Shown: positions 419 through 24,154 of the stretch, piece by piece
Numbering within the stretch: position 1 is the stretch's first letter
Layout: the number at the start of each line of letters is the position of its first letter
NCBI GenBank assembly: GCA_041742355.1
Contig: JBGSIV010000298.1
Span: 1 to 24,154, forward strand
DNA from: Candidatus Zixiibacteriota bacterium
Lineage (GTDB): Bacteria > Zixibacteria > MSB-5A5 > GN15 > FEB-12
Length of the DNA stretch: 24,154 nucleotides
Reading direction: 5' to 3'
Notes under the pieces: model-generated
The model's input: the letters and a program-made list of their open reading frames with translations, nothing else
Told to the model about the DNA's origin: nothing
Database searches by the model: none
Translations under genes and position numbers: made by a program

Positions 419-438
419 CACCACTGAGCCGAGGCAAA

Positions 439-2741: not shown

Positions 2742-2770
2742 TACGAGATTTATTGCTGAGTGGAGATCGA

Positions 2771-2794
2771 GGCGGGGGTAGCGATACCCCCGTT
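2771..2794. terminator. GC-rich hairpin between convergent MFS and GH3 genes (possible bidirectional terminator or RNA stability element)
   Basis: CGGGGGTA-GCGA-TACCCCCG (2773-2792) is a perfect 8-bp stem with a GNRA loop, directly after the GH3 stop codon. There is no clear U-tract. Confidence 0.55.
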
Positions 2795-5001: not shown

Positions 5002-5042
5002 AGCGTTTGCCAGTCGTTGCTCTGGTTATCGGTCGGGTCAGG

Positions 5043-8213: not shown

Positions 8214-8325
8214 GATGACCTCCGTTGCGTTATCCCGCAGATTGCGATCAGGCCCAACGGCCACCGTAACTATTTAACAGAAAACAGAATACAGACATCG
8301 TACGACGGCGGCACAGGATCTGGCA

Positions 8326-8352
8326 TACTTTGTTCTCTCTCCGAACAAAGTA
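8326..8352. promoter_or_regulatory. Perfect inverted repeat TACTTTGTTC-N7-GAACAAAGTA, probable ROK (XylR-like) repressor operator
   Basis: 10-bp perfect arms with a 7-bp spacer, AT-rich, overlapping the predicted -10 box. Resembles XylR-type ROK operators (TTTGTT...AACAAA). Confidence 0.75.
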
Positions 8353-8375
8353 CCAAATTTGGATGGTATTGTCAA
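8347..8375 (-). promoter_or_regulatory. sigma70-type promoter for the GH-A/GH3 genes
   Basis: Minus strand: TTGACA (8375-8370), 17-bp spacer, TACTTT (8352-8347; TAnnnT). Confidence 0.7.
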
Positions 8376-8421
8376 GTTGAAAGTGCTCTGTCGGCGAATC
8401 ACTGCGAGGCCCGACAGGAGT

Positions 8422-9546
8422 TCAGTTGGCAGGCCGCCGGCGTTCGGCCAGATACTGGAGGAACGATTCTTTGGGCGACCGGTCTTCGTTGAAGACCCCC
8501 CAGTGTTTTTCGATATGGTCGGACGATGAATTCTCTCCGCCCCCTTTCCACGGTTCATCGAACGCCTCAAAGAGGAAGGTCGTGACCTGATTCGCTTTCG
8601 TCCACCGGTGCAATTGGCTGAGAAAGGTCGCCTGTCCGGCCAGCCCGACCTCGCCTTTGACCAGGCTTCCCTGTTCGCCCGGACCGGTTTGGCTCGGGTC
8701 GTAGGTGGTGGCCCAGCCGGTTTCGCCCAGGACAATAAGCCGATCGGGGTGCCTATCCTGCACTTCGCGCCAGACCTCGTCCATCCAGCCGATGGCTTGT
8801 TCGAGGCTCTTCCCATTCCAGAGAGGATGTATGTGTGACACCACAAAATCGATCTCTTCGGCCACCGGCCGACTCTCCGGCTTGTTCCAGAAATTGAAGT
8901 CGTCGGCGGTAGTAACCGGTATGGACACTCCTGACCTGATCGCACGAATATAGCGGATCAGGTGCCGCGGGTCCATGCGGTGAGCCGACCAGTACACCTG
9001 AGTCTCGTTGCCGACGCTGACCGCCGCAACCCGGGCGGCATAGCGATTGGCCAGTTCGATTCCACGGAGCACTTGATCAATATTAGCCTGCCGCCGCTCC
9101 GGCCGGCCGTTCTCCGTTTCCAGCCAGATTCCCAACATCACTTTGATGGGCAGATCGTGCCGCTCGATCACCTCGAGGATTCGCCTTGAGTCGTCGTCGG
9201 CGCCGTAGAGCCGAATCAGTCTCCAGTGAACGGCGATGAGTCGCAGGTCCTCCAGAATCTGAGCTTCGCTCGGCCCGTTTTGTCCGGGGGCCTGACCGCG
9301 CCGGTAGCAGCCGTAGGCCACCGCCTCACCCACCCATGCCTCGCCCGGAAACGGCTCGAATGAGCGAAGGGCAAACGGCTCCTGGCGCGGCAGGGTATCG
9401 CTTGATTCCACTATGGCTCTGAACTCGCTCATGGCTGACTCATCCACCCTGAGACCGTGGGCCGATTCGCCCCGATGACATGCCGGGATAATCAGAATCC
9501 CCATGGCAGCCGGCACAAGAAGCAGGAGGCAGAAGGCTGCTCTCAT
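8422..9546 (-). CDS. GH17 family beta-1,3-glucanase/glucanosyltransferase, probable lipoprotein
   Basis: LIRLYG, VMLGIW, VSVGNE (acid/base), VTTADD, LGETGWAT (nucleophile), FEAFDEPWK, HWGVF. Hydrophobic N-terminus ending IIPAC. Confidence 0.9.
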   Translation of the reverse strand: MRAAFCLLLLVPAAMGILIIPACHRGESAHGLRVDESAMSEFRAIVESSDTLPRQEPFALRSFEPFPGEAWVGEAVAYGCYRRGQAPGQNGPSEAQILEDLRLIAVHWRLIRLYGADDDSRRILEVIERHDLPIKVMLGIWLETENGRPERRQANIDQVLRGIELANRYAARVAAVSVGNETQVYWSAHRMDPRHLIRYIRAIRSGVSIPVTTADDFNFWNKPESRPVAEEIDFVVSHIHPLWNGKSLEQAIGWMDEVWREVQDRHPDRLIVLGETGWATTYDPSQTGPGEQGSLVKGEVGLAGQATFLSQLHRWTKANQVTTFLFEAFDEPWKGGGENSSSDHIEKHWGVFNEDRSPKESFLQYLAERRRPAN

Positions 9547-9657: not shown

Positions 9658-10947
9658 GTGGTGAAAGACGATTCAGTATATCGGCGGAGGTCGTTTCCCG
9701 CGAGATCATTGATTCTCGCCGGCACCCTCTTCGTTCTCACTGTAATTAGCGCAGCGGAGCGGCTAAAGGCAATGAATGATTTTGCTGCCGGCTGCTGCCA
9801 GGTGCCGGGAGATGTTGATCATAACGGAAAGATCAACGTTTCCGATGTCACCGTCCTGGTGGCCCACCTGTTCAAGGGCGGCCCGGATCTTGTCTGTCCG
9901 GCCGAGGCTGATCTCAATAGCGATGTCGCCCTCAACATATCCGATTTGACCTTTCTGATAGAGTTCCTCTTCCGCGGCGGTGCAGCGCCGGGGGAATGCC
10001 CCCCGCTTATCGCGATAAAGGACTTGGAGCCGGGTGACGATTCCGTGCGCGGATCGGCAAACGTTTCTCTTCCCACGGGCTACCGGGTGGTGCTCTGGGC
10101 CAAGACTGACCGCTGGTATGTCCAACCGACCACCGCCCAACCGTTCACAGTGATCCGAATCGGCGGCCGCTGGTCCAATTTCACCAACCCATGGACCCGG
10201 ATCGCGGCGTTGCTGGTCGATTCAGATTATATCCCGGGCGCGATCCGGGAAGATCACCCGGCGGTGGCTGCGGGGGTAGTGGATTGGGACGAGTACCCTG
10301 AGCGTTCGCCTGACCGATACATTGATTGGAGCAACTTCCGCTGGCGAGTAAAACAGGCAGAGCTGACGGGACCTGGTCCGAATGCGTTTTCCGACGATAC
10401 CGCCAATGTGCGGATCGACCAGGACGGCCGGCTTCACCTGAGGATAGATTACCGCAATGGCGTGTGGTACTGCGCCGAAATCGTTCTCGACCATGCGCTG
10501 GGATATGGGACGTATACCTTCCGGCTTGACTCCCGGGTCGACAACCTGAATTACAACACGATATTCGCCGGCTTCCTCTTTGACACCTCGGGACAGGAAT
10601 TCGACATGGAGTTTTCGCAGTTCCTGGCCGACCCACATAATGCGCAATTCGTGGTGCAGCCGTGGTATCTTCCCGGCAACATTGAGTTCTACGATATGCC
10701 CGATAGCGCACAGACCAGCTTTACCATGGAGTGGCGCTCCGATCACATCACCTTCACGAGTTGGCTCGGCCATGCCGACGCGCCGGAGCCGAATACGCTG
10801 CTTCACACCTGGACGTATACCGGGGCGAATATCCCGGCGCCCTCCGACGCTCGCGTGCGCTTCAACCTCTATCTCGCCAATGGCGATCCGCCTTCGCAGG
10901 GCCACGAGGACGAGGTAGTTGTCGCATCGTTTGGCTATTCTCCATAG
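9658..10947 (+). CDS. Secreted protein: N-terminal dockerin-like domain, small middle domain, C-terminal GH16-like (ConA/LamG-fold) domain
   Basis: Two EF-hand-like dockerin repeats, GDVDHNGKINVSDVTVLVAHLFKGG and ADLNSDVALNISDLTFLIEFLFRGG, flanked by Cys. C-terminal DGRLHLRI, LGYGTYTF and EFDMEF (E-x-D-x-E). The start codon could be 9658 or 9661. Confidence 0.75.
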   Translation: MVKDDSVYRRRSFPARSLILAGTLFVLTVISAAERLKAMNDFAAGCCQVPGDVDHNGKINVSDVTVLVAHLFKGGPDLVCPAEADLNSDVALNISDLTFLIEFLFRGGAAPGECPPLIAIKDLEPGDDSVRGSANVSLPTGYRVVLWAKTDRWYVQPTTAQPFTVIRIGGRWSNFTNPWTRIAALLVDSDYIPGAIREDHPAVAAGVVDWDEYPERSPDRYIDWSNFRWRVKQAELTGPGPNAFSDDTANVRIDQDGRLHLRIDYRNGVWYCAEIVLDHALGYGTYTFRLDSRVDNLNYNTIFAGFLFDTSGQEFDMEFSQFLADPHNAQFVVQPWYLPGNIEFYDMPDSAQTSFTMEWRSDHITFTSWLGHADAPEPNTLLHTWTYTGANIPAPSDARVRFNLYLANGDPPSQGHEDEVVVASFGYSP

Positions 10948-11157: not shown

Positions 11158-11592
11158 ATGCTGTTCTCAAAGGGTTGCACTTACGCCATACGCGCGGCGC
11201 TTCTGGTCGCCACGAAAGAGATCCGTGATGACCGCAAGTTCGTGCCAATCCGCGAGCTCTCCGAAGAGCTGGGCCTCTCGTTTCACTTCCTGACCAAGAT
11301 TTTGCAGCAACTGACCGAAGCCGGCATCATGGAATCGTTCCGCGGCCCCAACGGCGGTATCGGTCTTGCCCGCCCAGCCCGAAGTATCACTCTTGTCGAT
11401 GTCATTGCCGCGATTGACGGCATGTCGCTCTTTTCGAGTTGCGCGCTCGGGCTCCCCGGCTGCGGCGAACAAACCCCGTGTCCGCTACACGATGCCTGGG
11501 CCAAACGGCGGCTCGATCTCCAGCGCATGCTCGAGAAGACCACCCTGGCCTCGCTCGCTCGCGAACTTGCAACCCATGAATTGAGGAACTGA
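11158..11592 (+). CDS. Rrf2-family transcriptional regulator with three Cys (putative Fe-S binding)
   Basis: YAIRA, FLTKILQQL..AGI..SFRGPNGG..LARP...ITLVDVI winged HTH, followed by CALGLPGCGEQTPCPLH. Confidence 0.93.
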   Translation: MLFSKGCTYAIRAALLVATKEIRDDRKFVPIRELSEELGLSFHFLTKILQQLTEAGIMESFRGPNGGIGLARPARSITLVDVIAAIDGMSLFSSCALGLPGCGEQTPCPLHDAWAKRRLDLQRMLEKTTLASLARELATHELRN

Positions 11593-11726: not shown

Positions 11727-12269
11727 ATGAAACAATCGCATGTACTGTTCGCGGCAGCCGCTCTGGCCGTAACCGCCTTTCTGGCGATCGGCGGCTGCTC
11801 CTCCGCTCCCGAAACCGATGCGGATCGCCAGGCCCGCTGGGCGTCCGGCAATCTCAACAGCTGGGAGACCGAACACGGCATCGGGCCTGTCACCGAGGAT
11901 GTCGTGCTTGCCTCGGCGGATCCGAACCGGGCGACATCTGGCCAGGCTATTTTCGTTCAGAAGTGCGCCACGTGCCACTATCTCGATCACAAGAAGACCG
12001 GGCCGATGCTCCGCGATATCACCAAACGTCGTTCGAACGCCTACATCCTTAACCAGATCCTCAATCCGGAGCAGATGGGGAAATTGCATCCCGACGGCAA
12101 GAAGATGGTTGCCCAGTATGCGCAGTTCATGACTATTCAGGGGATCACCCGCGAAAACGCCGAGGATCTGCTGCACTTCCTTCACTCGGAAGCGGACAAG
12201 CCGGCGCTTCCGGTGGAACAGCAGCCCGGTTTTGGCGTGCCACCCCCTCCCCCACAGGCCAGTAACTGA
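11727..12269 (+). CDS. Monoheme cytochrome c lipoprotein, nos-associated
   Basis: Lipobox-like LAIGGC, heme-binding CATCH, GPML, and distal Met candidates. Lies directly upstream of nosZ, as in clade II clusters. Confidence 0.88.
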   Translation: MKQSHVLFAAAALAVTAFLAIGGCSSAPETDADRQARWASGNLNSWETEHGIGPVTEDVVLASADPNRATSGQAIFVQKCATCHYLDHKKTGPMLRDITKRRSNAYILNQILNPEQMGKLHPDGKKMVAQYAQFMTIQGITRENAEDLLHFLHSEADKPALPVEQQPGFGVPPPPPQASN

Positions 12270-12304: not shown

Positions 12305-14221
12305 ATGCGAACCAATCGATTGCTGCTGTTCACGTTGGGAGTCGGCTTTCTCATCCTGGTTGCCCTTTCGCCCGGGTGTGCCGACAAACAGGAGGCCGGC
12401 GGGTTTGGCGACGCCGCCGCCAAGGTCTATGTCGCGCCGGGCACCTACGACGAGTTCTACGCCTTCATGTCCGGCGGTTTCAGCGGGCAGGTATCAGTTT
12501 ACGGCTTGCCCTCGGGACGTCTCTTCCGGGTAATACCGGTCTTCAGCCAGGATCCGGAGAAAGGCTACGGCTATTCCGAGGAGACCAAGCCGCTGCTCAT
12601 GACGTCGCACGGCTTCATCCCCTGGGATGACGCGCACCACCCGCAACTTTCGGTATCCGACGGCCAGACCAATGGCCGCTGGCTCTTTATCAACGGCAAC
12701 AACACGCCGCGCTTGGCCCGTATCGACCTGACCACATTCGAAACGGTCGAGACCATTGAAATACCGAATTCGGCCGGCAACCATGGCTCTCCGTACGTTA
12801 CCCCCAACACCGAATATGTCGTGGCCTCGACCCGCTTCAGCGTGCCCATACCGCAGAAAGACGTTCCCATCAACACCGCTAAAGAGAACTTCAAGGGGAC
12901 GATTAGCTATATCAAGGTAGATTCGGCCACCGGCCGCATGAATCTCGCTTTTCAGATTCTCGTGCCGGGTATCGCGTACGACCTCTCCCGGGCCGGCAAA
13001 GGTCCGTCGCACGGCTGGTCGTTCTTCAGTTCCTATAACACGGAACAGGCCAGTACCCAGCTTGAGGTGAATGCTTCGCAAAACGACAAGGACTTCATCG
13101 CCGCGGTCAACTGGAAACTCGCCGAGGAGCTTGTGGCTCAGGGGAAGGGCCAGACGTGGCCCGCCAACTACTACCACAATTATATGGATGCGGCCGATGT
13201 CGGTCAGAGCGAGGTGATGAAAGAGGTCATCATGCTTAACGCCCGGGAACATCCCGGCCTGGTTTACTATCTGCCGACGCCCAAATCCCCGCATGGCTGC
13301 GATGTCGATCCGTCGGGTGAGTACATTGTCGCCAGCGGCAAACTGGCCGCTCTCATCCCCGTCCACTCCTTCAGCAAATTCCAGCAGGCGGTACAGAATA
13401 ACGACTTCGACGGGGAGTTCGAGGGAATCCCGATTGTGAAGTACGAGTCGGTCATCGCCGGCGAGGTGAAGGAACCGGGGCTCGGGCCCTTGCATACCGA
13501 GTTCGACGGAAAGGGGAATGCCTACACATCCATGTTCCTTTCCTCGGAGATCGTGAAGTGGAAACTCGGCACCTGGGAGGTGGTTGACCGCATTCCGACT
13601 TACTACAGCATCGGCCACCTCATGATCCCGGGCGGGGACACGAAACAGCCGTACGGGAAGTATGTGGTCGCGCTCAACAAGATCACCAAGGACCGCTACC
13701 TGCCGACCGGTCCCGAGTTGACCCATGCTGCGCAGCTCATCGATATCTCCGGCGACAAGATGAAGCTGCTGCTGGATTTCCCGACTATCGGTGAGCCGCA
13801 TTACGCCCAGGCCTGTCCTGCCAGTCTCCTGGTTGAGAACTCCAAACGCTGGTACGCCATCGAGGAGAACCACAATCCGCATGCCATCAAAGCCGAGGGC
13901 GAGGCCCGGGTGGAGCGGGATGGCCGCGACGTTCATGTTTACCTCAGCACTATCCGAACTCACTTCGCCCCGGATAACATCGAGGGCGTTAAGGTCGGTG
14001 ACAAGGTCTACTTCCACGTCACCAACCTCGAGCAGGATTGGGATGTCCCGCACGGCTTCGCCGTTCACGGCGCGTCCACTTCCGAACTGCTCGTGATGCC
14101 CGGCCAGACGCGCACGCTCCTGTGGGAGCCCCGGATGGCCGGCGTGATACCGTTCTACTGCACCGATTTCTGCTCCGCGCTGCATCAGGAGATGCAGGGC
14201 TGGATCAGGGTTTCAAACTAA
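12305..14221 (+). CDS. nosZ: Nitrous oxide reductase, clade II (Sec-dependent)
   Basis: AGGAGG RBS. No twin-Arg motif. YGLPSGRL; CuZ His motifs DAHHP, GNHG, SPHG, IGH, GPLHT, EPH; CuA HGF...CTDFCSALHQEM. No fused C-terminal cytochrome c. Confidence 0.98.
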   Translation: MRTNRLLLFTLGVGFLILVALSPGCADKQEAGGFGDAAAKVYVAPGTYDEFYAFMSGGFSGQVSVYGLPSGRLFRVIPVFSQDPEKGYGYSEETKPLLMTSHGFIPWDDAHHPQLSVSDGQTNGRWLFINGNNTPRLARIDLTTFETVETIEIPNSAGNHGSPYVTPNTEYVVASTRFSVPIPQKDVPINTAKENFKGTISYIKVDSATGRMNLAFQILVPGIAYDLSRAGKGPSHGWSFFSSYNTEQASTQLEVNASQNDKDFIAAVNWKLAEELVAQGKGQTWPANYYHNYMDAADVGQSEVMKEVIMLNAREHPGLVYYLPTPKSPHGCDVDPSGEYIVASGKLAALIPVHSFSKFQQAVQNNDFDGEFEGIPIVKYESVIAGEVKEPGLGPLHTEFDGKGNAYTSMFLSSEIVKWKLGTWEVVDRIPTYYSIGHLMIPGGDTKQPYGKYVVALNKITKDRYLPTGPELTHAAQLIDISGDKMKLLLDFPTIGEPHYAQACPASLLVENSKRWYAIEENHNPHAIKAEGEARVERDGRDVHVYLSTIRTHFAPDNIEGVKVGDKVYFHVTNLEQDWDVPHGFAVHGASTSELLVMPGQTRTLLWEPRMAGVIPFYCTDFCSALHQEMQGWIRVSN

Positions 14222-14227
14222 GGAAGT

Positions 14228-14929
14228 ATGGTGTCTGTGAGCAACAAGCCGCAATCGGATGGTTCCGCGAAAGCGGGGCCATCCACTCCCACGGAATCTC
14301 TGGAGCGGATTCGGCGCCCCGGGGATCCGCTGCGCATGTCCTCCCGTTTCGCGATTGTTGCGGTTGCCCTTCTGTTGTCTCTTACCTACTACTTCCCGCT
14401 GTGGGAAATCACTCTCGACGCCCCGCAGTATCCGGAGGGACTGGGTCTGGAGATCTGGATCAACCAGATACAGGGGCAACATCCGGGTGACCTGAACAAG
14501 ATCAACAACCTGAATCACTACATCGGCATGAAGAAGATTCAGCCCGAATCGATTCCCGAACTGCGCGTGATGCCCTGGGTGATGCGGGGTCTGATGCTCT
14601 TCGGTATAGTCGTGGCACTGGTGGGAAAGAGAGGTCTGCTGTTTGCCTGGCTGGTGCTTTTCGTTGCGGTCGCGGCGGCCGGCTTTGTCGACTTCTACCT
14701 CTGGGGTTACGATTACGGCCACAATCTCGACACCGAACATGCGATCATAAAGGTTCCGGGAATGAGCTATCAGCCGCCGGTCATTGGAAGCAAGAAACTG
14801 CTCAATTTCAAAGCCATCTCTCTGCCGGGGATTGCCGGCTATGTCGCTATAGGATCTTTCCTGTGTGCGGCTTCAGTCTGGTTTATCGAGTTCCGTCGCG
14901 CTCGAAAAGGAGGTTTCCGTGGACTATAG
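14228..14929 (+). CDS. nosB: NosB-like membrane protein of clade II nos clusters
   Basis: PLWEITLDAPQYPEGL, INNLNHYIGMK, DFYLWGYDYGHNLD and YQPPVIG motifs, four hydrophobic segments, immediately after nosZ. Confidence 0.85.
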   Translation: MVSVSNKPQSDGSAKAGPSTPTESLERIRRPGDPLRMSSRFAIVAVALLLSLTYYFPLWEITLDAPQYPEGLGLEIWINQIQGQHPGDLNKINNLNHYIGMKKIQPESIPELRVMPWVMRGLMLFGIVVALVGKRGLLFAWLVLFVAVAAAGFVDFYLWGYDYGHNLDTEHAIIKVPGMSYQPPVIGSKKLLNFKAISLPGIAGYVAIGSFLCAASVWFIEFRRARKGGFRGL

Positions 14930-15398
14930 GCGTATCCCGCTGGCAACTCTTATCTCCGCCGCCGTGCTCGTCGCAGTCGGGTGCTCGAGTCCCGGCCCGG
15001 CAGAGATTCACTACGGCGCTGACCTGTGCGACTACTGCGACATGACCATCGCCGACCAGGCCTTCGGCGCCGAACTGGTCACGACCAAGGGGAAGGTGCT
15101 CAAGTTCGACTCGATTGAATGCCTCGCCGCCTCCAGTGTTGAAGAGCGAATTGCCGGCGTTGATGTTCACTCCCTGTGGGTCACCGACTTCCATCAACCG
15201 GGGTCATTTTTGACTGTCGGCGAGGCAGTGATAGTCGCCACAGATCGCCAGAAGAGTCCCATGGGGATCGGGCTCGTGGCTGTTGGTTCCCAGGCGGCCG
15301 CGGTTGATCTCATAGCCCAGAAGGGCGGTCGGATCGTGGATTGGGACATTACCAAGAGGCTGGTTGCGCAGAGCTGGGAGATTGAGGTTTCCCGATGA
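14919..15398 (+). CDS. nosL: Copper chaperone lipoprotein NosL
   Basis: Preferred start is GTG at 14919 after AGGAGG. Lipobox VAVGC, then CDYCDMTI, KFDSIECL and SPMG. Confidence 0.9.
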   Translation: MDYRRIPLATLISAAVLVAVGCSSPGPAEIHYGADLCDYCDMTIADQAFGAELVTTKGKVLKFDSIECLAASSVEERIAGVDVHSLWVTDFHQPGSFLTVGEAVIVATDRQKSPMGIGLVAVGSQAAAVDLIAQKGGRIVDWDITKRLVAQSWEIEVSR

Positions 15399-16642
15399 AC
15401 GTCTTTACCTGCGCGACAGTGTGGTTTAGTGCCGCTATGGTGGTTGGGGCCTGTGCCTCAGAAGCCACCGTGTTGCGCGTGCAGCCTGCCAGTACATTTG
15501 AGACTATCGGCGCCGCCCTCGCTGTCGCTGTTCCTGGCGACACGATCGCCGTTAAACCGGGCACGTATACGGAGTACGGGTTACGCATCGACAAACCGAT
15601 CACTTTGCTTGGCTTCGGCCGGCCGGTCCTCGATGCCGCCGGAAGGGGGGCGCTGCTTACGGTAACCTGCCCCGGCGTGACGATTGCCGGATTCGTCCTT
15701 CGCAATGTCCCGGCCAGCCACATCAAGGAGCATGCCGCGGTCTTGCTCGACGGCGTGGCGGACTGCGAAATTAGAGACAACCGCATCGAGGGCTGCTTCT
15801 TCGCGATCTACCTGTCCAAGTCCGAGCGCTGTCGGATTAGCGGCAATGAGATTATCGGTTCATCGACGGAGCTTACCGGTTCGGGCAATGGCATTCATCT
15901 TTGGAACAGCCGTGATATCGCCATCCATGAAAATACGATACGCGGCCACCGCGACGGCATCTACCTCGAATTTGTCAAGCACAGCCGGATTTCCGGTAAC
16001 ACAAGCGCCGGCAATTTCCGTTATGGACTGCACTTCATGTTCTCCGACAGCTGCCGTTATGAAGACAACAGCTTTCTCCGCAACGGTTCCGGTGTTGCCG
16101 TGATGTACACGAAGAATGTCGACATGACCGGCAACACGTTTTCGGAGAGTTGGGGCGGAGCCTCCTATGGCCTGCTGCTCAAGGACATCAAAGACAGCCG
16201 CGTTGTCCGGAACGAGTTCCTTTCCAATTCGGTCGGGGTTCACATGGAGGGTTCCGACCGCATCGCGATCGAGTTCAACCGGTTTGTTGACAACGGCTGG
16301 GCGATCAGGATAATGGCCAATTGCGTGGACAGCGATATTCGCGACAACGACTTCATTGACAATTCATTTCAGGTCGCCACCAACAGCCGCCAGACGTTCA
16401 GCCGTTTCGATCGCAACTACTGGAGTGCCTACCGCGGTTACGATCTCGATCGCGACGGCTACGGCGACGAGCCTTTCCGGCCAGTCAGTCTGTACAGTCT
16501 ACTCGTCGAGTCTGAACCTGCGACACTCGTACTGGTCCGCAGTCTGCTTGTCGATGTCCTCAATCTCGCCGAGCGCGTTGTGCCCACGCTCACTCCCGAG
16601 GCGCTGATCGACTCACGTCCCCGTATGAGGCCAATTACATGA
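15395..16642 (+). CDS. nosD: NosD, periplasmic beta-helix maturation protein
   Basis: GNGIHLW, GHRDGIYLEF, RYGLHFMFS, GVAVMY, NYWSAYRGYDLDRDGYGD. ATGA overlap with nosL. Confidence 0.95.
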   Translation: MNVFTCATVWFSAAMVVGACASEATVLRVQPASTFETIGAALAVAVPGDTIAVKPGTYTEYGLRIDKPITLLGFGRPVLDAAGRGALLTVTCPGVTIAGFVLRNVPASHIKEHAAVLLDGVADCEIRDNRIEGCFFAIYLSKSERCRISGNEIIGSSTELTGSGNGIHLWNSRDIAIHENTIRGHRDGIYLEFVKHSRISGNTSAGNFRYGLHFMFSDSCRYEDNSFLRNGSGVAVMYTKNVDMTGNTFSESWGGASYGLLLKDIKDSRVVRNEFLSNSVGVHMEGSDRIAIEFNRFVDNGWAIRIMANCVDSDIRDNDFIDNSFQVATNSRQTFSRFDRNYWSAYRGYDLDRDGYGDEPFRPVSLYSLLVESEPATLVLVRSLLVDVLNLAERVVPTLTPEALIDSRPRMRPIT

Positions 16643-17349
16643 TCGAAATCACGGCTCTTCATAAACGTTTCGGCCGGTTCGTGGCCCTGCACGAAATCAA
16701 CCTCTCTATCGAGCGGGGCAAGATCACGGGTATCATTGGTCCAAACGGTTCCGGCAAGTCGACGTTGCTGAAGTCTCTCCTGGGGCTCGTTACACCGACC
16801 TCGGGGCGAATCACTATCGATGGCTACCTCCTCGATTCGTCCTGTGACTACCGCACCCGGCTCGGTTATGTGCCGCAGGTTGCACGTTTCCCGCAGGAAC
16901 TCACAGGGGCGGAGGTGTTGGCGACTGTCAAAGGTCTGCGCGCCACAGCCCCTACCCGCGAACAGGAACTAATCCGGCTCTTCGAACTCGAATCGGAAAT
17001 GCCCAAGCGTGTCCGGGCGATGTCCGGCGGAACTCGTCAGAAATTGAGTATGCTTCTGGCCGGTATGTACGATCCGCCGCTCCTCATCTGCGACGAACCG
17101 ACCGCCGGTCTCGACCCGGTCGCAAACACCCGCCTGAAAGCGCACCTCTTGTCGCTGCGCGAGCAGTCGCGCACGGTGGTTGTTACGACTCACATCATGA
17201 GCGATCTGGATGAAATCGCCGATAACGTCGTCGTCCTCCTTGAGGGCCGCGTCCGCTTCAGCGGGGCTGTCCGCGATCTCAAGCTCCGGACTGAGGAACC
17301 GCATCTGGAGGCCGCCGTCGCCCGCCTGCTCGAAAAGGGGGCCGCATGA
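16639..17349 (+). CDS. nosF: NosF, ABC transporter ATPase
   Basis: Walker A GPNGSGKS, signature MSGGTRQK, Walker B ICDEPT, H-loop TTH. Lies between nosD and nosY with ATGA overlaps. Confidence 0.92.
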   Translation: MIEITALHKRFGRFVALHEINLSIERGKITGIIGPNGSGKSTLLKSLLGLVTPTSGRITIDGYLLDSSCDYRTRLGYVPQVARFPQELTGAEVLATVKGLRATAPTREQELIRLFELESEMPKRVRAMSGGTRQKLSMLLAGMYDPPLLICDEPTAGLDPVANTRLKAHLLSLREQSRTVVVTTHIMSDLDEIADNVVVLLEGRVRFSGAVRDLKLRTEEPHLEAAVARLLEKGAA

Positions 17350-18137
17350 GACTCACCCTGCATATCGCCTGGTACACGATCCGCGACCTCACCCGCAACC
17401 GCTGGGGTCTGCTCTACGCCTGCTTCTTCGCCGTCGTCACCATCGGCCTGTTCCATCTGCAGGCGCAGTCCGCCAAGGTGGTCGTGAGCCTTATGAGTGT
17501 CTGCCTGTTTCTCATCCCCCTGGTATCGTCCCTCTTTGGGACTATCTACCTCTACAACTCTCGCGAGTTCATTGAACTGGTGCTCACTCAACCGGTATCC
17601 CGCCGGACCGTATTTTTCGGCATGTTCACCGGTCTGGCTGCTGCGCTGGTCGCGGGGTTTTCCCTTGGTGTCGGCGTACCTTCCGTCATATTCGGATCCT
17701 GGTCCACTGCTCATTTCCTGTCCAGTTCGCTCCTGATCCTCGTCGGCGCCATTCTCACCGTGATCTTTCTGGCCCTCGCGTTTCTGCTGGCCCTTCGGTT
17801 CGATGACCGCGGCAAGGGGCTCGCCGCCGCGCTCGGTGTGTGGCTCTTCGCCGCGCTCCTCTATGACGGGCTCGTCCTGCTCGGTGCGATGGCCTTCGCC
17901 GACTATCCGCTCGAGTTCCCGCTGCTCTTTGCCTCTATGGCCAACCCGATAGATCTCGCTCGCGTCATTCTCCTGACCCACACCGATTGGGCCGCTCTTA
18001 TGGGCTACACCGGGGCGGTTTTCCAGCGCTTCTTCGGAACGACGCTGGGTCTTGCTATAGCGTCACTCTCACTGGCCGCCTGGGCCGCTGTCCCCTTGAT
18101 GTTCGGCCTGCGGACGTTTCGCACGAAGGACTTCTGA
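17346..18137 (+). CDS. nosY: NosY, ABC permease
   Basis: YNSREFIELVLTQP, NPIDLARV and AALMGYTGAVF motifs, about six TM segments. Confidence 0.9.
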   Translation: MRLTLHIAWYTIRDLTRNRWGLLYACFFAVVTIGLFHLQAQSAKVVVSLMSVCLFLIPLVSSLFGTIYLYNSREFIELVLTQPVSRRTVFFGMFTGLAAALVAGFSLGVGVPSVIFGSWSTAHFLSSSLLILVGAILTVIFLALAFLLALRFDDRGKGLAAALGVWLFAALLYDGLVLLGAMAFADYPLEFPLLFASMANPIDLARVILLTHTDWAALMGYTGAVFQRFFGTTLGLAIASLSLAAWAAVPLMFGLRTFRTKDF

Positions 18138-18178: not shown

Positions 18179-19663
18179 GTGACCTCTTTCGTGAGCAACC
18201 TGATTCGGTGCCGCTGGCTGCTGGCCGCCGATTCGTCGCAGCTCGCCCGCCTGTACCTGCTGACGCTCGGCTTTTTCGCGCTCTCCGGCACTATCGCTGC
18301 CCTTGTCCTCCAGCTTGAACTCGGCAGCGCCTCCAGCCACTTGGTGAGTGCGCACCGTTTCGGCCAGCTCTTTACCCACCACGGCCTGGTCATGGCCTTT
18401 GTCGTCCTCCTCCCGCTTATCCCGGCCGTGTTCGGCAACCTCGCTCTTCCGGGGGCGGTCGGCGCCCGCGGTTTGGCCGGACTCGGATGGAACCGCGCCG
18501 CGTGGGTTCTGCACGCCGTCGGAGGAGTGGCGGTCATTGTCGCTGTCGAGTCCGGAGCGTACGACAGCGGCTGGACTCTCCTCATGCCGGCTGGGAGCTC
18601 ACAGCTCTACCCGGTTCTCCTTGGCGGTCTACTCCTGGTCGCTGTCGCCACGTTCATCATCAATTGGTCTGTCGTTGCGACGATCCTGAGCAGGAAACAT
18701 CGCTCCATTCCTCTATCCAACATACCCATCATCGCGTGGTTCTTCTTATTCGGAGCGTTGGTTGTGGTCCTGGTCAGCCCGATTCGCTGTTTCACCCTTG
18801 TCGTTCAAATTCTCCATCAGGTTGGCCTGGGCGACTTCCTCTCCCCCGACAATCCCGAAAGCATCACGCGCTACCAACGTCTCTTCTGGGCCTATGCGGG
18901 AACCGCAACGAGCGCTGCCGCTCTCCCGGCACTCGGCATCACGCTTCATATCGGGGCGACCCACGGCCGAGCAAACGTGTTCCTGCATCGGGTAGTCGTA
19001 TTCGCCGGACTTGCAGTGGGCCTGCTCAGCCTTGTTTCCTGGGGGCAGCATCTTCTCACTGCCGCCGACTCCCAGAAACTCGCCGTCACCGGCAGTTTCT
19101 TCGGCCTGCTCGCCTCGGTACCAACCGGCATTATTCTGCTGAGCCTTTTGGTCATGCTCTTTCAGGCTCGATCCCGTCGGGCTGTTCCCGTCCTGATCGC
19201 CTGGCTGCAAATCGGCCTCATCACCCTTGGCAGCCTGGCCGGCCTTGTGCTGGCCGCACCTGCCACCGGCGCCGTCCACCACAACAGTTACCTTGCTACC
19301 GGCCACCTGCACCTGCTGGTGGTCGGCGGCATAGTTCTTTCCTTCTTTTCCGGAATATTCCATTGGATTCAGCTGCCCGATGGCCGCGCGACGACTGTCG
19401 GCCGTTTGGCTATCGGCGCCCTTGCCCTCGGCGTGCTGCTGACGTATGTGCCCATGCTCGTCAACGGCCTCGGAGGCTCTCCGAAAGCCCTATTTGTCTA
19501 CCCGGATCGCTATGCATCGATGCACACGGTGTCCTCGATCGGCACCCTTATACTCACGCTCGCCCTGCTGACTTTGATTGGGCTCATTGGCCACGCCAGT
19601 GCTCAAAGTCGCACAGTCGAGACGTCCCGGCCGAAACCCGTTCCGGGTGAGACCTTCGCATGA
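18179..19663 (+). CDS. Degenerate heme-copper oxidase subunit I (CoxI/CtaD-like) homologue lacking CuB ligands
   Basis: Preferred start is GTG at 18179 after GGGAGG (the ORF track starts at 17987, inside nosY). Collinear CoxI motifs: FTHHGLVM, PAVFGN, GWT, YQRLFW, SWGQH, VPTG, HNSYLATGHLH, YPD. About 12 TM segments. Confidence 0.85.
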   Translation: MTSFVSNLIRCRWLLAADSSQLARLYLLTLGFFALSGTIAALVLQLELGSASSHLVSAHRFGQLFTHHGLVMAFVVLLPLIPAVFGNLALPGAVGARGLAGLGWNRAAWVLHAVGGVAVIVAVESGAYDSGWTLLMPAGSSQLYPVLLGGLLLVAVATFIINWSVVATILSRKHRSIPLSNIPIIAWFFLFGALVVVLVSPIRCFTLVVQILHQVGLGDFLSPDNPESITRYQRLFWAYAGTATSAAALPALGITLHIGATHGRANVFLHRVVVFAGLAVGLLSLVSWGQHLLTAADSQKLAVTGSFFGLLASVPTGIILLSLLVMLFQARSRRAVPVLIAWLQIGLITLGSLAGLVLAAPATGAVHHNSYLATGHLHLLVVGGIVLSFFSGIFHWIQLPDGRATTVGRLAIGALALGVLLTYVPMLVNGLGGSPKALFVYPDRYASMHTVSSIGTLILTLALLTLIGLIGHASAQSRTVETSRPKPVPGETFA

Positions 19664-19670
19664 TGTTCCC

Positions 19671-19700
19671 TTGATTCACCGATTTGGGATGCTTTATATT
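19671..19700 (+). promoter_or_regulatory. Possible internal promoter for the DUF438/DUF1858 genes
   Basis: TTGATT (19671-19676), 18-bp spacer, TATATT (19695-19700), in an AT-rich gap of about 100 bp. Confidence 0.35.
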
Positions 19701-19767
19701 ATCTGCACAAACAAACCTTCGCGATCCGCACTCCGCGCAGGTAATCGTAGCCGAAAGGATTTGACCA

Positions 19768-21009
19768 ATGAGTGAACTCATAGATAATACCCTCGCCCGC
19801 CGCGCCGTGCTCAAACACCTCATCCTGCAACTCCATTCGGGGCAGGCCGCCGAACACGTCAAACCGCAGTTGCTCCGCCTTCTCGGGCGCGTTCCCTACA
19901 ATGAGGTTGTCGCTGTCGAACAGGAACTCATCGCCGAGGGCATGCCGATCGAGGAAATCATGCGCTTGTGCGATCTCCATTCGGCCGCCATGCGAGGCGC
20001 GATCGATCACGGCGAAGAACGGGTGGCTCTTCCCGGTCACCCCGTACATACTTTCAAGAAAGAAAACGAAGCTCTCCTCGGCGAACTCGAACTGGTCGAC
20101 AAGCTCTTCACTGAAATCGCCGCTCTCCCTGATGATGCCGATGCCTCGGAGCCGCTCGGCTACCTTCGGGTTCGTTTCAGCCGCCTGGGTGATATCGAGA
20201 AACACTATTCCCGCAAGGAGAATCTCGTCTTCCCCTACCTGGAGCAGAAGGGCATCACCGGCCCGTCGACGGTCATGTGGGGCAAAGACAATGAGGTTCG
20301 CGATCTTGTCAAAGCGGCCGGCGAAACCCTCCTTGTTACCGAATCAATCGACGCTGCCGATGCCCGCGAACTGACCAATGTGGTCTTGCGTCCCGCTGTC
20401 GATGCCATTAAGGAGATGATCTTCAAAGAGGAGGAGATCCTTCTCCCGATGTGCCTCGACAAATTGTCCGATGATGAGTGGTATGCGATCGCCGTCCAGA
20501 GCCCGGAGATTGGGTTTTGCATCTATGATCCCGTCGACACGTGGACTCCGTCCGGTACTCCGGCCGAGTCCGCGCCGACCGCTGAGACCGGCCGCGTTAA
20601 CTTCGCTACCGGCAGCCTCTCGCCAACCGAACTGGAGTGCATCCTCAATACTATCCCCTTCGACCTGACTTTTGTCGGCGCCGATGATACCGTCCGCTAT
20701 TTCACCCAGGGGCGCGAGCGCATCTTCGACCGCAACCGCGCCATTATCGGCCGCCAGGTCCAGATGTGCCGTCCGCCGGCCAGTGTCCATATCGTCCAGC
20801 GTATACTCGATGATTTCAAGGGCGGCAAGGCCGATCGCGCCCCGTTTTGGATCAATCTCAAGGGAAAGTTCATACATATCGAGTACTTCGCTATTCGCGA
20901 CCGACAGGGTAAGTACCTCGGTACCCTCGAGGTCAGTCAGGACCTGACCGAAAAGCGGGCTCTCACCGGCGAACAACGCCTGCTTTCGTACACGAGGATC
21001 GATGTATGA
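19768..21009 (+). CDS. DUF438 + hemerythrin-like + PAS_10 domain protein
   Basis: EQELIAEGM..EEIMRLCDLHS (DUF438); GHPVHTF..EN, HYSRKENLVFPYLE, VMW, MIFKEEEIL (hemerythrin-like); PFDLTFV..DDTVRYF..IGRQVQMCRPP..YLGTLEVSQD (PAS). Confidence 0.88.
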   Translation: MSELIDNTLARRAVLKHLILQLHSGQAAEHVKPQLLRLLGRVPYNEVVAVEQELIAEGMPIEEIMRLCDLHSAAMRGAIDHGEERVALPGHPVHTFKKENEALLGELELVDKLFTEIAALPDDADASEPLGYLRVRFSRLGDIEKHYSRKENLVFPYLEQKGITGPSTVMWGKDNEVRDLVKAAGETLLVTESIDAADARELTNVVLRPAVDAIKEMIFKEEEILLPMCLDKLSDDEWYAIAVQSPEIGFCIYDPVDTWTPSGTPAESAPTAETGRVNFATGSLSPTELECILNTIPFDLTFVGADDTVRYFTQGRERIFDRNRAIIGRQVQMCRPPASVHIVQRILDDFKGGKADRAPFWINLKGKFIHIEYFAIRDRQGKYLGTLEVSQDLTEKRALTGEQRLLSYTRIDV

Positions 21010-21581
21010 TCGACAACCGCCCCCCAATCACGCCCCAGTCGAAGGTGGGCGATATTCTCAGCGCCTATCCGGAGCTTGAGGAGACTCTGATAGCGATCGC
21101 CCCCGCTTTCAAGAAGCTGCGTAATCCTCTGCTGCGGCGAACTGTGGCACGGGTCACCAGTCTCGCCCAAGCGGCGCGGGTTGGCAATGTCTCTGTCGCC
21201 GAGCTCGTTCAGCGCCTTCGTGCTGCGGTTGGTCAACCTGAGTTCGTCGGCGAAACGGAAGAGACAGGTTTAACGGTGTTGTCGGAAGTGCCGTCGCATA
21301 TTGATCTGGCGAAAGTGGTCGAGACCATTGATGCCCGTCCGATGATAGAGGCCGGCGAACAGCCGATGACGCTTGTGCTTAAGGCCATCAATAAGCTGGA
21401 GGGAGAAGCTCTCCTGTTGCTCATCACGCCCTTCGAACCGGCGCCGCTGCGCGATCGCGCAAGGGAGCGCGGGTTTCAGAGCGTCGCGGTGAGGCACAGT
21501 GCGGGAGTGGTGACTACGTACTTCTGGCGAGAGCGGCCTCTGTCAACTCTTTCAGAACCGCAGGATTCCAGTCTTCGGTGA
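21006..21581 (+). CDS. DUF1858 + DUF2249 (SirA/TusA-like) domain protein
   Basis: KVGDILSAYPEL..FKKLRNPLLRRTVAR.TSL.QAA (DUF1858) and IDARPMIEAGEQP..PFEPAPL..GF (DUF2249-like). ATGA overlap with the upstream gene. Confidence 0.8.
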   Translation: MIDNRPPITPQSKVGDILSAYPELEETLIAIAPAFKKLRNPLLRRTVARVTSLAQAARVGNVSVAELVQRLRAAVGQPEFVGETEETGLTVLSEVPSHIDLAKVVETIDARPMIEAGEQPMTLVLKAINKLEGEALLLLITPFEPAPLRDRARERGFQSVAVRHSAGVVTTYFWRERPLSTLSEPQDSSLR

Positions 21582-21586
21582 CGGTC

Positions 21587-22039
21587 TCAGCGCGCAATCG
21601 AGTCGTCGATAATCGCCTTCAATTCGCCGGTTTGATCAATTTGCCATTTGTCGATGGCGGGGTCGTCGTCGAGGCGCTCGGCGACTGCCGTGGCGACAAA
21701 GGCATCCGGTGTTCCGGTAATGGTATAGGCGTAGCGAGCCGAGATCATGATTTCTACGCCGAGGGTGTCAAACGCAAAGGGGGTATCCTTGCCAGCGACC
21801 GTCCCCGAACTGGGAATCCAGTACTGGTCATGCTCCTGGAAGTACGAGCGCTCCATAAGGTAGATCTGGTGGAGCAGTTCCTTGGCTTCGGTCTGCTTGG
21901 CTTTGGTGGTCGAACTCATGTAGCGGGGAATAGCGATTCCCGCAAGAATCCCGATGATGACCAGGACGATGAGCAATTCGAGCAGGGAAAACCCGCGGTT
22001 ACTGGTCAGCCGGTGGCGGCGCGTACTGGTAGTACTCAT
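21587..22039 (-). CDS. Type IV pilin / pseudopilin (major-pilin-like)
   Basis: Class III signal RG|FSLLELLIVLVIIGILAGIAIP with E5. GAGGA RBS upstream. Confidence 0.9.
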   Translation of the reverse strand: MSTTSTRRHRLTSNRGFSLLELLIVLVIIGILAGIAIPRYMSSTTKAKQTEAKELLHQIYLMERSYFQEHDQYWIPSSGTVAGKDTPFAFDTLGVEIMISARYAYTITGTPDAFVATAVAERLDDDPAIDKWQIDQTGELKAIIDDSIAR

Positions 22040-22532
22040 GGAAGTTCCTCACGAGAAGTGCACAGGTATCCGCGGCGCTGCGATCGCTTATTGCGAAGCG
22101 AACGAAGTACAAGCCGGGCCGGGTTACCTGTGCCGCACGTAATATGGTATCAGGTGACTCTTGTGGCAGCGGAAACGGAGTGATCGCCAGGTGCTCGAAG
22201 CTGTAGCCGGGTTGCAGGAGGATCTGGCGGTCCGACTGGAGCTGTCCGTCCGGCCACCGGTAGCACGCTCGTTCCTTTGCGGAATCGAAAAAGACGATGC
22301 TGTCGGGATAGCGCGCGATCGACGTGCAGGAGGCCATGTGCTCTGACAGCAGTTGGGCGGCGAAGGCGACTTCTTCTGCCCGGCTGTTTTGCCGGCGCCA
22401 CCGCTCGACATAGCGCTGGACAAACAGCGTGCCGGACACGACCATCACCAGGAGGATAGCCGTGATGGCCAGCGACACCAGCAACTCGACGAGCGTGACA
22501 CCACGGTTACTGTGCAGACGGGGTGAACTCAT
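21999..22532 (-). CDS. Minor pilin / pseudopilin
   Basis: RG|VTLVELLVSLAI prepilin cleavage motif. Overlaps neighbouring genes at both ends. Confidence 0.8.
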   Translation of the reverse strand: MSSPRLHSNRGVTLVELLVSLAITAILLVMVVSGTLFVQRYVERWRRQNSRAEEVAFAAQLLSEHMASCTSIARYPDSIVFFDSAKERACYRWPDGQLQSDRQILLQPGYSFEHLAITPFPLPQESPDTILRAAQVTRPGLYFVRFAISDRSAADTCALLVRNFHEYYQYAPPPADQ

Positions 22533-22875
22533 AGTACCACCTTAGGAGAACCCGGCGAGAGCCGTGGCGACTCACGGTCAGATCAACGACGGCACAGACG
22601 TCGGCCACTTGGACGCTCCGAATGATCCGGAACTGCCGGGTATTGCGGACCACGATTGTATCAAGCGTTGATGTCTCCTTGACGGCGATCGTCTGTTCCA
22701 TAACCATCTGACCAACGGCGCCTGCCTGCGTCAACTCGTCGACGTGGAGTTTTGCCAAGGTGCCGTTGAGTACGCCGATCACGATCGAGAAGCCGATCAT
22801 GAATACCAGTGCCCCCACGAGGATTTCCAAAATAGTGAAGCCGGCCTGGTTTTGCAGGCGCTTGTGCTTACCCAT
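22507..22875 (-). CDS. Minor pilin / pseudopilin (PilV/GspI-like size)
   Basis: Preferred ATG at 22875 after GGGAGG. AG|FTILEILVGALVF prepilin motif. Confidence 0.8.
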   Translation of the reverse strand: MGKHKRLQNQAGFTILEILVGALVFMIGFSIVIGVLNGTLAKLHVDELTQAGAVGQMVMEQTIAVKETSTLDTIVVRNTRQFRIIRSVQVADVCAVVDLTVSRHGSRRVLLRWYYEFTPSAQ

Positions 22876-24154
22876 CGCCACCCTCCCACAGGATGCGCGG
22901 AGCCCGTACATTGGTGGTATCCCCCAGCAGCATGGGCAAGGCTGGTTGGTAGCTGAGCCGGGAGCGGTCGATGCGGCAGTCGCACAGCCAGTTGACGTAG
23001 GTCGTGGGAGGTACCTCGTGGACGAACTGCTCGGTCAGCACGCTGCCGTAGACGGTTCCGCGCAGTTCGGTTATACCATTAGTCAAGACGCAGCCGTACA
23101 TGGCTGCGGCGGTATCGATGTAGACAACCGTGTGACGGTACGAAGCCGCGGTGTCCAGGCGCACCGCGCAGACGGTAGCTTCGGCCGGGCGAACGGAGCA
23201 GAGCGCTATTATCGACGTGTCCCTGTCTCCCCTTTCACTGCAAGCCACCAGGACGGCCGGAAAGTGGAGGGCTGCTGATCGTCGGGTGGCGACCAAGCGC
23301 GGAGAGAGGGCGGTGCCGGAGAAACTGCAACTGTCGGTGAAGATGATCGAATCTTCGGCGTAGAGCAGGATGCCCTCAAGGACGGCCTGTCCCGCGACTC
23401 GTATGTGTGTGCCGGCGATAATCCGGACCGGCGAACGCAGGTGCGTATCGCCGGTGATCTCGGCCGAACCACCCACGATAATCGTGCGGACCTGGCAGAG
23501 GGGCCAATCGGCCGCGCCATCGAGGATCAGGTTGTTTTCCACGTAAATCACGCCTGGTTCGAGCGGGAGCTGGTCCTCCTTCTGCATGAGCCTTGAACCG
23601 GACCAGACGATGTCGCGTTGCCGTCGATCCCGAGCCACTTCAGCCAGAAAGCGGCGGAGCATGGTTGTGTCGATGGCAGGCAGGATGATGGTACGCTCAG
23701 TGAAATTTTTGCCACACAGGAAGTTCGGGAAGACCGGACCGATGCCATTGAGTCGTCCCTCAAGGACACCCGCAGGGCCGGTGACGACATCTCCAATGAT
23801 AGTCGTCCGTCCAGTTACGGTCATCGGGAGCGTTTCATCGCCTATCGTGATGGCGGGAGCCACGGTCTCCGCATGCCACGAGCCAACCAGGGCGGTGCGG
23901 AGAGCTGTCTGGGACCCCAGCCGCCCTTCGGCGGTGATGAGCGCCAGTGCGCCCCAGGAGTGAGTAACGTATGCAACCGTGCCGCCGTTGGGCGTAGCGA
24001 ACGTGTCCACCGGGAGGGAGGTACTGGCGGATGTGCTTTTCAGGCCAGCCAGCGCCCGGTTGATCCCTGTCTGAGCCAACCACCCTGCTCCCTGGCGGCT
24101 CAGGTCCCGCTGGTGCGCGGCGTAACGGGAGAGCGCGAAGGTCAGCGCGGAAAG
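22868..24154 (-). CDS. PilX/GspK-like large minor pilin, 5'-truncated by window
   Basis: The frame stays open to 24154 (LSALTFALSRYAAHQ...WLAQTGINRA, similar to the PilX-N A-E/Q-x-G motif). ITAEGRLG motif and a C-terminal region of short beta-repeat-like segments. Adjacent to three prepilin genes. Confidence 0.6.
   Translation of the reverse strand, partial: LSALTFALSRYAAHQRDLSRQGAGWLAQTGINRALAGLKSTSASTSLPVDTFATPNGGTVAYVTHSWGALALITAEGRLGSQTALRTALVGSWHAETVAPAITIGDETLPMTVTGRTTIIGDVVTGPAGVLEGRLNGIGPVFPNFLCGKNFTERTIILPAIDTTMLRRFLAEVARDRRQRDIVWSGSRLMQKEDQLPLEPGVIYVENNLILDGAADWPLCQVRTIIVGGSAEITGDTHLRSPVRIIAGTHIRVAGQAVLEGILLYAEDSIIFTDSCSFSGTALSPRLVATRRSAALHFPAVLVACSERGDRDTSIIALCSVRPAEATVCAVRLDTAASYRHTVVYIDTAAAMYGCVLTNGITELRGTVYGSVLTEQFVHEVPPTTYVNWLCDCRIDRSRLSYQPALPMLLGDTTNVRAPRILWEGGDG

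Follow-up and report, generated by a model that had tools for sequence, protein, structure and literature searches.

CoxL (a name coined here) is a homologue of cytochrome oxidase subunit I, encoded in a stretch of 24154 nucleotides from Candidatus Zixiibacteriota bacterium (GenBank contig JBGSIV010000298.1, positions 1–24154; the window). It is the final gene of a clade II nitrous oxide reductase (nos) cluster. Our analysis makes it very probable that CoxL has lost the binuclear centre and both proton channels of the oxidase but has kept the low-spin heme site, that it evolves under purifying selection, and that it is inherited together with the nos genes. It is a real and conserved accessory protein of the clade II nos clusters of Zixibacteria, and apparently an undescribed one. 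We tentatively suggest that CoxL may act as a non-catalytic membrane electron relay with one heme, passing electrons from quinol to NosC and NosZ; judged from sequence features, this role is plausible but short of probable.

Loss of the copper site in an intact subunit I

CoxL is an intact and well folded oxidase subunit I of A2 descent that has lost its CuB ligands. The frame has 494 codons and no internal stop; it starts with GTG, preceded 8 nt upstream by GGAGG, and is separated from the nosY stop codon by 41 nt. The product matches the PF00115 COX1 model with 190 bits over residues 22–457, and A-family models score far below their cut-offs (for TIGR02891, CtaD, 232 bits against a cut-off of 671). 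The AlphaFold model has a pLDDT of 86.8 and a pTM of 0.88, and its Foldseek superposition on bovine oxidase subunit I gives a TM-score of 0.88. A search of the ESM Atlas returned COX1 clusters only. Alignments with yeast and human subunit I are free of gaps across helices VI, VII and X, in agreement with the initial annotation of this DNA, made from the letters alone, which had described the frame as intact and collinear with the A family.

Ligands are numbered as in bovine CoxI, in which H61 corresponds to H68 of CoxL. Both low-spin heme ligands, H61 (18380) and H378 (19310), are retained, as are the high-spin heme ligand H376 (19304), H291 (19049) and H368; the initial annotation had named H61, H376 and H378 correctly and had left H291 unstated. 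Its list of losses (H240, Y244, H290, D91, K319 and the arginine pair) was also seen in full in our alignments. The CuB ligands H240 and H290 are replaced by Gly (18899) and Gln (19046), respectively, and the cross-linked Y244 by Ser (18911). The proton channels are changed by D91 to Gly (18470) and K319 to Ile (19133). Further changes are D369 to Asn, R438/R439 to Lys/Ala and R38 to Gln. The heme-copper superfamily carries a six-histidine signature (PMC3475470). CoxL has four of the six histidines, and only two of them are invariant in the 26 full-length family members to which all residue counts refer (one split copy and the divergent G119 and G120 sequences are left out). Since a contig from a separate study (run X2) is identical base for base over 18858–19800, the substitutions are not an assembly error.

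We compared CoxL with subunit I of A2 caa3 oxidases (TIGR02891 CtaD; Thermus 2YEV; the canonical copy of the host, C225). The 12-helix fold is the same, with TM-scores of 0.86–0.89, and the low-spin ligands, W236, the YS-motif tyrosine and Y371 are shared. However, CoxL has no CuB site, no cross-linked tyrosine and neither the D- nor the K-channel; R38 and R439 are lost, an arginine occupies an O2-channel position, no genes for subunits II–IV adjoin it, and it is only 27% identical to the host copy. The full oxidase operon lies elsewhere in the host genome, and no CuA subunit II is encoded beside coxL. In two quick IQ-TREE trees, the members of the CoxL family form a clade (support 100) nested within the YS-type A2 group (SH-aLRT 100), as expected from the A2 descent proposed in the initial annotation. 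The clade is not sister to the canonical Zixibacteria copies, and long branches leave its precise sister group uncertain.

No described heme-copper family fits CoxL. All 20 members scanned in NCBIfam match only A-family models, five of them also SoxB. Membership of the cNOR, qNOR, NOD or N2O red families, which have a scaffold related to the C family and an FeB site of three histidines and a glutamate, was rejected on these A-family matches and on the lost histidines, and membership of the bo3 and aa3-600 quinol oxidases was rejected because the quinol site of helices I–II is not conserved. PMC11214002 lists twelve families, of which the Tyr-less ones derive from the B family, qNOR or cNOR, and gNOR is called the first family to replace one active-site histidine. 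The eNOR, sNOR, bNOR, nNOR, gNOR, NOD and 'N2O red' families resemble CoxL in having no active-site tyrosine and in their link to nitrogen oxides; according to the same paper, however, they keep at least two metal-binding histidines, and those descended from the B family have a gene for a CuA-type second subunit. CoxL is set apart from these published descriptions by its A2 descent, the loss of two or three metal histidines and its stand-alone occurrence. We therefore also rejected membership of eNOR, sNOR, bNOR, nNOR and gNOR as defined there, given the A2 origin and the loss of at least two histidines. Our literature search did not turn up any account of nos clusters with a CuB-less subunit I; such proteins could be mentioned in subscription papers that classify heme-copper enzymes, which were not searched.

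Distribution, co-inheritance and selection

A family profile built from 20 members was run on 285 genomes of the phylum, with five candidates scored per genome. Matches above 360 bits occur at 28 places in 25 genomes, and canonical copies reach at most 354 bits. Of the same 285 genomes, 41 gave a match to clade II nosZ; coxL is carried by 25 of these 41 and by none of the other 244. The named relatives of CoxL are labelled Zixibacteria. Orthologues with the same histidine losses, which the initial annotation had proposed to look for, thus exist, and at 25 of the 28 places coxL directly follows nosY. The remaining three are G072, in which a gene for a TonB-dependent receptor (best match a copper receptor model, 58 bits, below the cut-off) is inserted between nosY and coxL; G100, in which the contig breaks; and G120, a basal relative situated away from nos genes. 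The 41 nosZ genomes therefore comprise 24 with a nos-linked coxL, G120, G119 (see below), 13 without coxL and 2 cut off in sequence; two of the 13 show less than 1 kb past nosY. Three genomes (G025, G134 and G129; loci L041/L045, L251/L252 and L258/L259) have two nos clusters each, with coxL in both. The two copies in G025 fall in different subclades, and one copy in G129 (C25) is split, as is the adjoining nosZ. Subunit II or III genes gave no match in any coxL family locus examined, and NosR and NosGH were not seen in these nos clusters. A metagenome scan yielded 3 family loci among 80, nearly all the others being canonical. In a genome scan with a pattern that favours Q290-bearing sequences, most of the 100 stretches found were chance matches and about 15 were CuB-less subunits I.

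CoxL is confined to the nos cluster and inherited with it. Over 21 loci, tree distances of CoxL correlate with those of nosZ (rho 0.81), nosD (0.85) and nosFY (0.71), compared with 0.77–0.84 among the nos genes themselves. In the NosZ tree, some clusters without coxL branch off basally and others sit among carriers, a pattern that indicates repeated loss (at least three changes).

Purifying selection was found among the orthologues. The dN/dS ratio is 0.08–0.25 in 33 of the 40 coxL pairs that are more than 62% identical, the other 7 being saturated; the values for nosD and NosB-like genes are similar, and those for nosZ are lower. The source coxL has no partner above 62% identity. Compared with fragments from a related strain, 17 of its 28 changed codons are synonymous, where 28% would be expected (one listed difference is not shown). 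It is extremely improbable that coxL is a decaying paralogue or a pseudogene carried along with the nos cluster. Members are only 29–54% identical to the source CoxL, coxL has been lost from several clusters and one copy is split; but the split copy lies next to an equally split nosZ, the dN/dS values are low, 26 full-length frames stay open across a deep divergence, and family-specific residues are invariant. Purifying dN/dS and a tree that tracks the nos genes show that CoxL is not a decaying paralogue, and this candidate was rejected on the dN/dS values, the invariant residues and the synonymous codons. None of the outcomes that would have refuted the initial annotation was seen, since the orthologues share the residue pattern, the nos synteny and the purifying selection.

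Only H61 and H378 are invariant among the heme and metal ligands, so the conserved cofactor site is the low-spin heme alone. H240 is absent throughout (Gly in 22 members, Asn in 4), as is H290 (Gln in 21), and H291 is kept in 19. Y244 is kept in 2 of the 26; the tyrosine of the YS motif is kept in 25 and its serine in 1. D91 remains in 5 members and K319 in none; R439 and R38 are both lost in all 26, the latter to Gln or Leu. The replacements of H376 (Gln in 6, Met in 3) fall in two separate subclades. The initial annotation had suggested a di-heme protein here; the source CoxL has the ligands for both hemes, but di-heme was rejected as a family trait, since H376 is replaced in 9 of the 26. 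Its statement that CoxL is not a normal oxidase or nitric oxide (NO) reductase is supported.

These counts also bear on a catalytic role. It is very improbable that CoxL still catalyses the reduction of NO or N2O, at an active site without precedent. According to PMC11214002, gNOR tolerates one active-site His-to-Asp exchange and several types of active site support NO reduction; Q290 and H291 are, moreover, common in the family (21 and 19 of 26). Against this, two of the three metal ligands are missing from every member, 7 members have lost the third as well and 9 the ligand of the catalytic heme, the replacing residues (G and N; Q, M, E and R) are not conserved, and no electron-input subunit adjoins coxL. 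Besides an intact A2 caa3 operon adjoining alternative complex III (ACIII), the host genome (93.8% complete) contains a cbb3 subunit I and qNOR-like pieces, so coxL is not needed as an oxidase or NO reductase.

Several residues are new to the family. First, R203 in helix V is Arg in all 26 members and Leu in 17 of 17 canonical A2 sequences; among 194 aligned sequences, Arg occurs at this position only in the CoxL family and its two basal relatives. Mapped via P0118, R203 corresponds to R. sphaeroides L246, whose side chain is listed in PMC4256069 as forming the O2 channel, as is L174. Second, two other novel invariant residues, M134 (R. sphaeroides L174) and L151 (approximately V194), lie on or beside O2-channel positions of the same list. 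Its position suggests that R203 points into the former O2 channel. At the position equivalent to G283, 25 of the 26 members have A, V, L or T. Lastly, comparison of 15 CoxL with 17 canonical A2 sequences shows a roughly twofold relaxation of helix IX and loops V–VI and VII–VIII and a 1.6-fold relaxation of helix VI; we take these three most relaxed segments to face subunit II and heme a3. The glycines of helix IX, which presumably lie beside the high-spin heme, are eroded.

The initial annotation had also considered a sensor, buffer or scavenger that binds NO or O2 at a copper-free high-spin heme and so protects NosZ. H376 is present in the source CoxL and in 17 of the 26 members, and H291 in 19; an Rrf2 gene stands first in the cluster, and 9 of 27 loci have DUF438/DUF1858 or hemerythrin genes downstream, genes with a putative link to nitrosative stress. 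However, H376 is dispensable, having been replaced in two subclades under equal selection. The invariant arginine at an O2-channel-lining position argues against a gas sensor, as do the bulkier residues at the G283 equivalent and the erosion of helix IX. An output domain is absent, and qNOR-like genes and a cbb3 oxidase are present elsewhere in the host. The idea is therefore weakened, and we regard it as improbable.

A possible route for electrons to NosZ

For the electron relay tentatively proposed above, we count the nos-only distribution, the place after nosY, the selection, the tree distances shared with the nos genes, the invariant low-spin pair, the O2-channel residues, the relaxed helix IX and loops, and the absence of subunits II and III. 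CoxL would stand alone, and electrons would flow in the reverse direction to that in an oxidase. Quinol would enter the former O2 channel and bind in a pocket formed by R203, Y239, W237, W132, M134 and L207; its electrons would pass to the low-spin heme and leave at the periplasmic loops, where a membrane-anchored NosC would receive them and hand them to CuA of NosZ. Loss of R38 or R439 is reported from mutagenesis to lower the heme potential, and with both arginines lost the potential in CoxL may be lowered, which would suit electron export; our literature search returned no paper on the effect of R38 on heme potential. Direct docking of the NosZ CuA domain on CoxL, in the manner of subunit II, was set aside because the CuA face concerned is covered by the CuZ domain in the NosZ dimer.

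The relay could supplement ACIII, or it could supply the reductant that keeps NosZ active in place of NosR or NosGH. Proteins of the NosR and NosGH type use flavin, Fe–S or c-type hemes, whereas CoxL has an oxidase fold and a predicted His/His heme, and the sequences are unrelated. The proposed role would nevertheless be analogous: NosR of clade I and NosGH, NosC and NosB of Wolinella-type clade II are nos-encoded membrane accessory proteins proposed to carry electrons to NosZ (10.1101/2024.01.15.574570).

Several observations weigh against this role. The ACIII gene actC is present in 37 of the 41 nosZ genomes, with or without CoxL, so there is no gap in electron supply to fill; on the same ground we rejected CoxL as a replacement of ACIII. 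CoxL is also dispensable, since 13 of the 41 genomes do without it, and in some of them no gene that might replace it is seen. Its rate of evolution is five times that of NosZ (tree lengths of 10.0 and 2.0). The carriers belong to two families with one shared origin, and the counts therefore show co-inheritance and not independent events. As for the quinol site, the proposed pocket holds no invariant acid or histidine in the 26 members, and the bo3-type site of helices I–II, whose residue numbers we assume, is not conserved, as the columns ahead of H61 vary freely. Finally, R203 could instead stabilize a heme propionate.

A different task near NosZ would be its maturation or maintenance, in which the heme protein gives reductant for Cu(I) loading through NosL and NosB or for CuZ assembly, or buffers the heme of NosC. 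The placement of coxL after the maturation genes nosDFY suits this reading, as do the common NosB–NosL fusions in these clusters and the putative copper receptor gene between nosY and coxL in G072. Moreover, the dN/dS of coxL resembles that of nosD and nosB rather than that of nosZ, and its dispensability fits an accessory factor. However, the family has no invariant cluster of Cys, Met and His for a new metal site (the invariant M72, M134 and H449 map to separate places in the structure), and what the protein lost is precisely its former copper site. We consider this explanation unlikely.

Setting of coxL and the wider class of CuB-less subunits

The clade II context given in the initial annotation is borne out: NosZ of the window matches TIGR04246 with 927 bits (cut-off 625), and NosL, NosD and an ABC ATPase and permease are encoded nearby. 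The gene order is rrf2, cytochrome c, nosZ, NosB-like, nosL, nosD, nosF, nosY and coxL (Table 1). Judging from this order, coxL is probably co-transcribed with the nos genes; a promoter and terminator scan gave nothing above shuffled sequences, and among the sequencing runs listed as containing the stretch none is of RNA. The NosC-like cytochrome is the likely electron donor to NosZ. In about ten related clusters, the NosB-like protein is fused to NosL (for example L039:5579–6739).

Table 1. Features of the nos cluster, of CoxL and of related loci (window positions unless a locus is named)
Feature	Position	Strand	Remark
Rrf2-family regulator	11158..11592	+	cluster head; equivalent position in related clusters
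Monoheme cytochrome c, NosC-like	11727..12269	+	lipoprotein signal judged by eye
NosZ, clade II (Sec-dependent) nitrous oxide reductase	12305..14221	+	C-terminal CuA motif present
NosB-like membrane protein	14228..14929	+	no Pfam match; named from gene order
NosL copper chaperone	14865..15398	+	
NosD	15395..16642	+	
NosF, ABC ATPase	16639..17349	+	
NosY, ABC permease	17346..18137	+	
CoxL, CuB-less A2-derived oxidase subunit I homologue	18179..19663	+	494 aa, 12 membrane helices; final nos gene, after nosY
H68 (bovine H61), low-spin heme ligand	18380..18382	+	H in 26/26 family members
R203, novel invariant Arg, helix V	18785..18787	+	26/26 members; position of R. sphaeroides L246
Helix VI, W237 and Y239 (A2 YS-motif Tyr) kept	18887..18913	+	H240 is G, Y244 is S
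Helix VII, H290 is Q, H291 retained	19040..19051	+	H290 0/26, H291 19/26
H376, high-spin heme ligand, present in CoxL	19304..19306	+	family: H 17/26, Q 6, M 3
H378, other low-spin heme ligand	19310..19312	+	H in 26/26
DUF438/hemerythrin/PAS protein and DUF1858/DUF2249 protein	19768..21581	+	loosely linked, inconstant across coxL loci
Subunit IV–cytochrome c fusions in nos clusters	L049:2776-3549, L050:2313-3095, L260:10184-10951		PF03626 and PF00034

CoxL is not the only subunit I without CuB ligands. Among the best 150 library hits, 141 align at all six sites, and 64 of these lack at least one CuB histidine; 62 of the 64 keep H61, 61 keep H378 and 34 keep H376. Dozens of deep-branching representatives within P0034–P0175 lack CuB ligands and keep the low-spin pair, most of them nameless and without context in the databases. 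Where context is available, the damaged copies mostly belong to ACIII–caa3 operons, often with a CuA-damaged subunit II. Such copies (L180, L197, L202, L203, L205 and L208) are like CoxL in their A2 origin and low-spin ligands but keep subunit II and III neighbours, have no R203 and do not lie beside nos genes; they arose at least partly independently. We likewise found no description of them in the literature search. CuB was lost more than once, because the damaged subunit I of a Myxococcales locus (L197:6901–14630), which together with a CuA-less subunit II follows ACIII and precedes an intact set, is sister to the intact paralogue of its own operon.

In Bacteroidales (L203:1135–11728, L202 and L208; genomes G285, G286 and G296), the operon continues after ACIII with a caa3 oxidase whose copper sites are missing: its subunit I carries H240R and H290Q, and its subunit II lacks the CuA cysteines but has a heme c motif. 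SCO gave no match in the L203-type locus. The copper-free protein is the sole PF00115 match in G285 and G286, and all three genomes carry clade II nosZ. Of the nine genomes of this family, three are copper-free with nosZ, three have an intact oxidase together with SCO and no nosZ match, and three gave neither; since the first three are near-identical, the pattern amounts to one event only. In basal nos clusters, G119 (L049:9371–14641) has a very divergent CuB-damaged subunit I after nosY, which keeps H240 and Y244 but has H290Q and has lost the arginine pair, and which is followed by rrf2, a hemerythrin-domain gene and qNOR; this copy is possibly a separate recruitment. The NosC proteins of G119, G076 and G284 are fusions with oxidase subunit IV (PF03626 and PF00034), and the G284 nos cluster sits directly after an ACIII–caa3 operon.

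These cases are the ground for another reading of CoxL, as a dead stand-in for subunit I that, during N2O respiration, joins the host subunits II–IV, holds the ACIII–caa3 supercomplex and diverts electrons from O2 to NosC and NosZ. It would fit the second, canonical-scoring subunit I found in 24 of 25 carrier genomes, the NosC–subunit IV fusions and the position of the G284 cluster, the damaged copy of G119, and the Bacteroidales genomes that lost CuB and CuA ligands and have nosZ. However, the segments that we take to contact subunit II are the most relaxed in CoxL, only 4 of 12 non-Zixibacteria lineages with a degenerate subunit I have nosZ, and in 5 of the 8 places where the subunit IV–cytochrome c fusion occurs it stands at the head of an unrelated operon. 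We consider the stand-in quite unlikely. The count of 4 in 12 also shows that the wider CuB-less class is not nos-specific, and a general tie of these proteins to nosZ was not borne out. The fusion, found in nos clusters in only 3 of 8 cases, was likewise rejected as a nos-specific feature.

The unnamed operon headed by the fusion in the other five genomes (L282:6682–12837, L283:1562–8274, L284, L285 and L286) encodes a protein of 431 aa that carries an N-terminal CxxCH and matches no Pfam model, a PF10634-like lipoprotein, a small protein resembling cupredoxins, and two cytochromes c, one with several domains and about 597 aa long, the other small; rrf2 lies upstream in two genomes. It could be a module for extracellular electron transfer or metal oxidation plugged into complex IV.

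The remainder of the window holds genes for beta-glucan utilization at 83–9546 (a ROK protein, GH16, a sugar symporter, GH3, and GH2-like and GH17-like proteins) and, at 9658–10947, a gene for a secreted protein that combines a dockerin-like domain with a C-terminal part resembling glycoside hydrolases; in tblastn, well over 100 places in the genome match this dockerin-like domain. Two short ORFs on the reverse strand at 21999–22911 have type IV pilin-like N-terminal methylation motifs. We know of no cultured coxL host.

In summary, CoxL suggests that the scaffold of a respiratory enzyme has taken on a different function. What defines the heme-copper superfamily is the binuclear centre, and a scaffold under selection with one heme and no catalytic site would be a new use of the superfamily. 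Databases label the relatives of CoxL 'cbb3-type oxidase subunit I', which inflates counts of aerobic respiration genes; the other CuB-less copies suggest that such mis-annotation is widespread. That CoxL is a quinol-oxidizing cytochrome running backward, and the clearest case of copper-free complex IV subunits repeatedly recruited toward non-oxygen acceptors, is a bolder view that we think rather unlikely; if true, an O2 channel would have turned into a quinol site and a low-spin heme would export electrons to N2O reductase. CoxL is a new nos accessory gene with a narrow known range, and its mechanism is a proposal. Clade II N2O reducers are the main biological sink of the greenhouse gas N2O, and for clusters without NosR or NosGH, CoxL offers an expressible candidate for the electron supply of NosZ.

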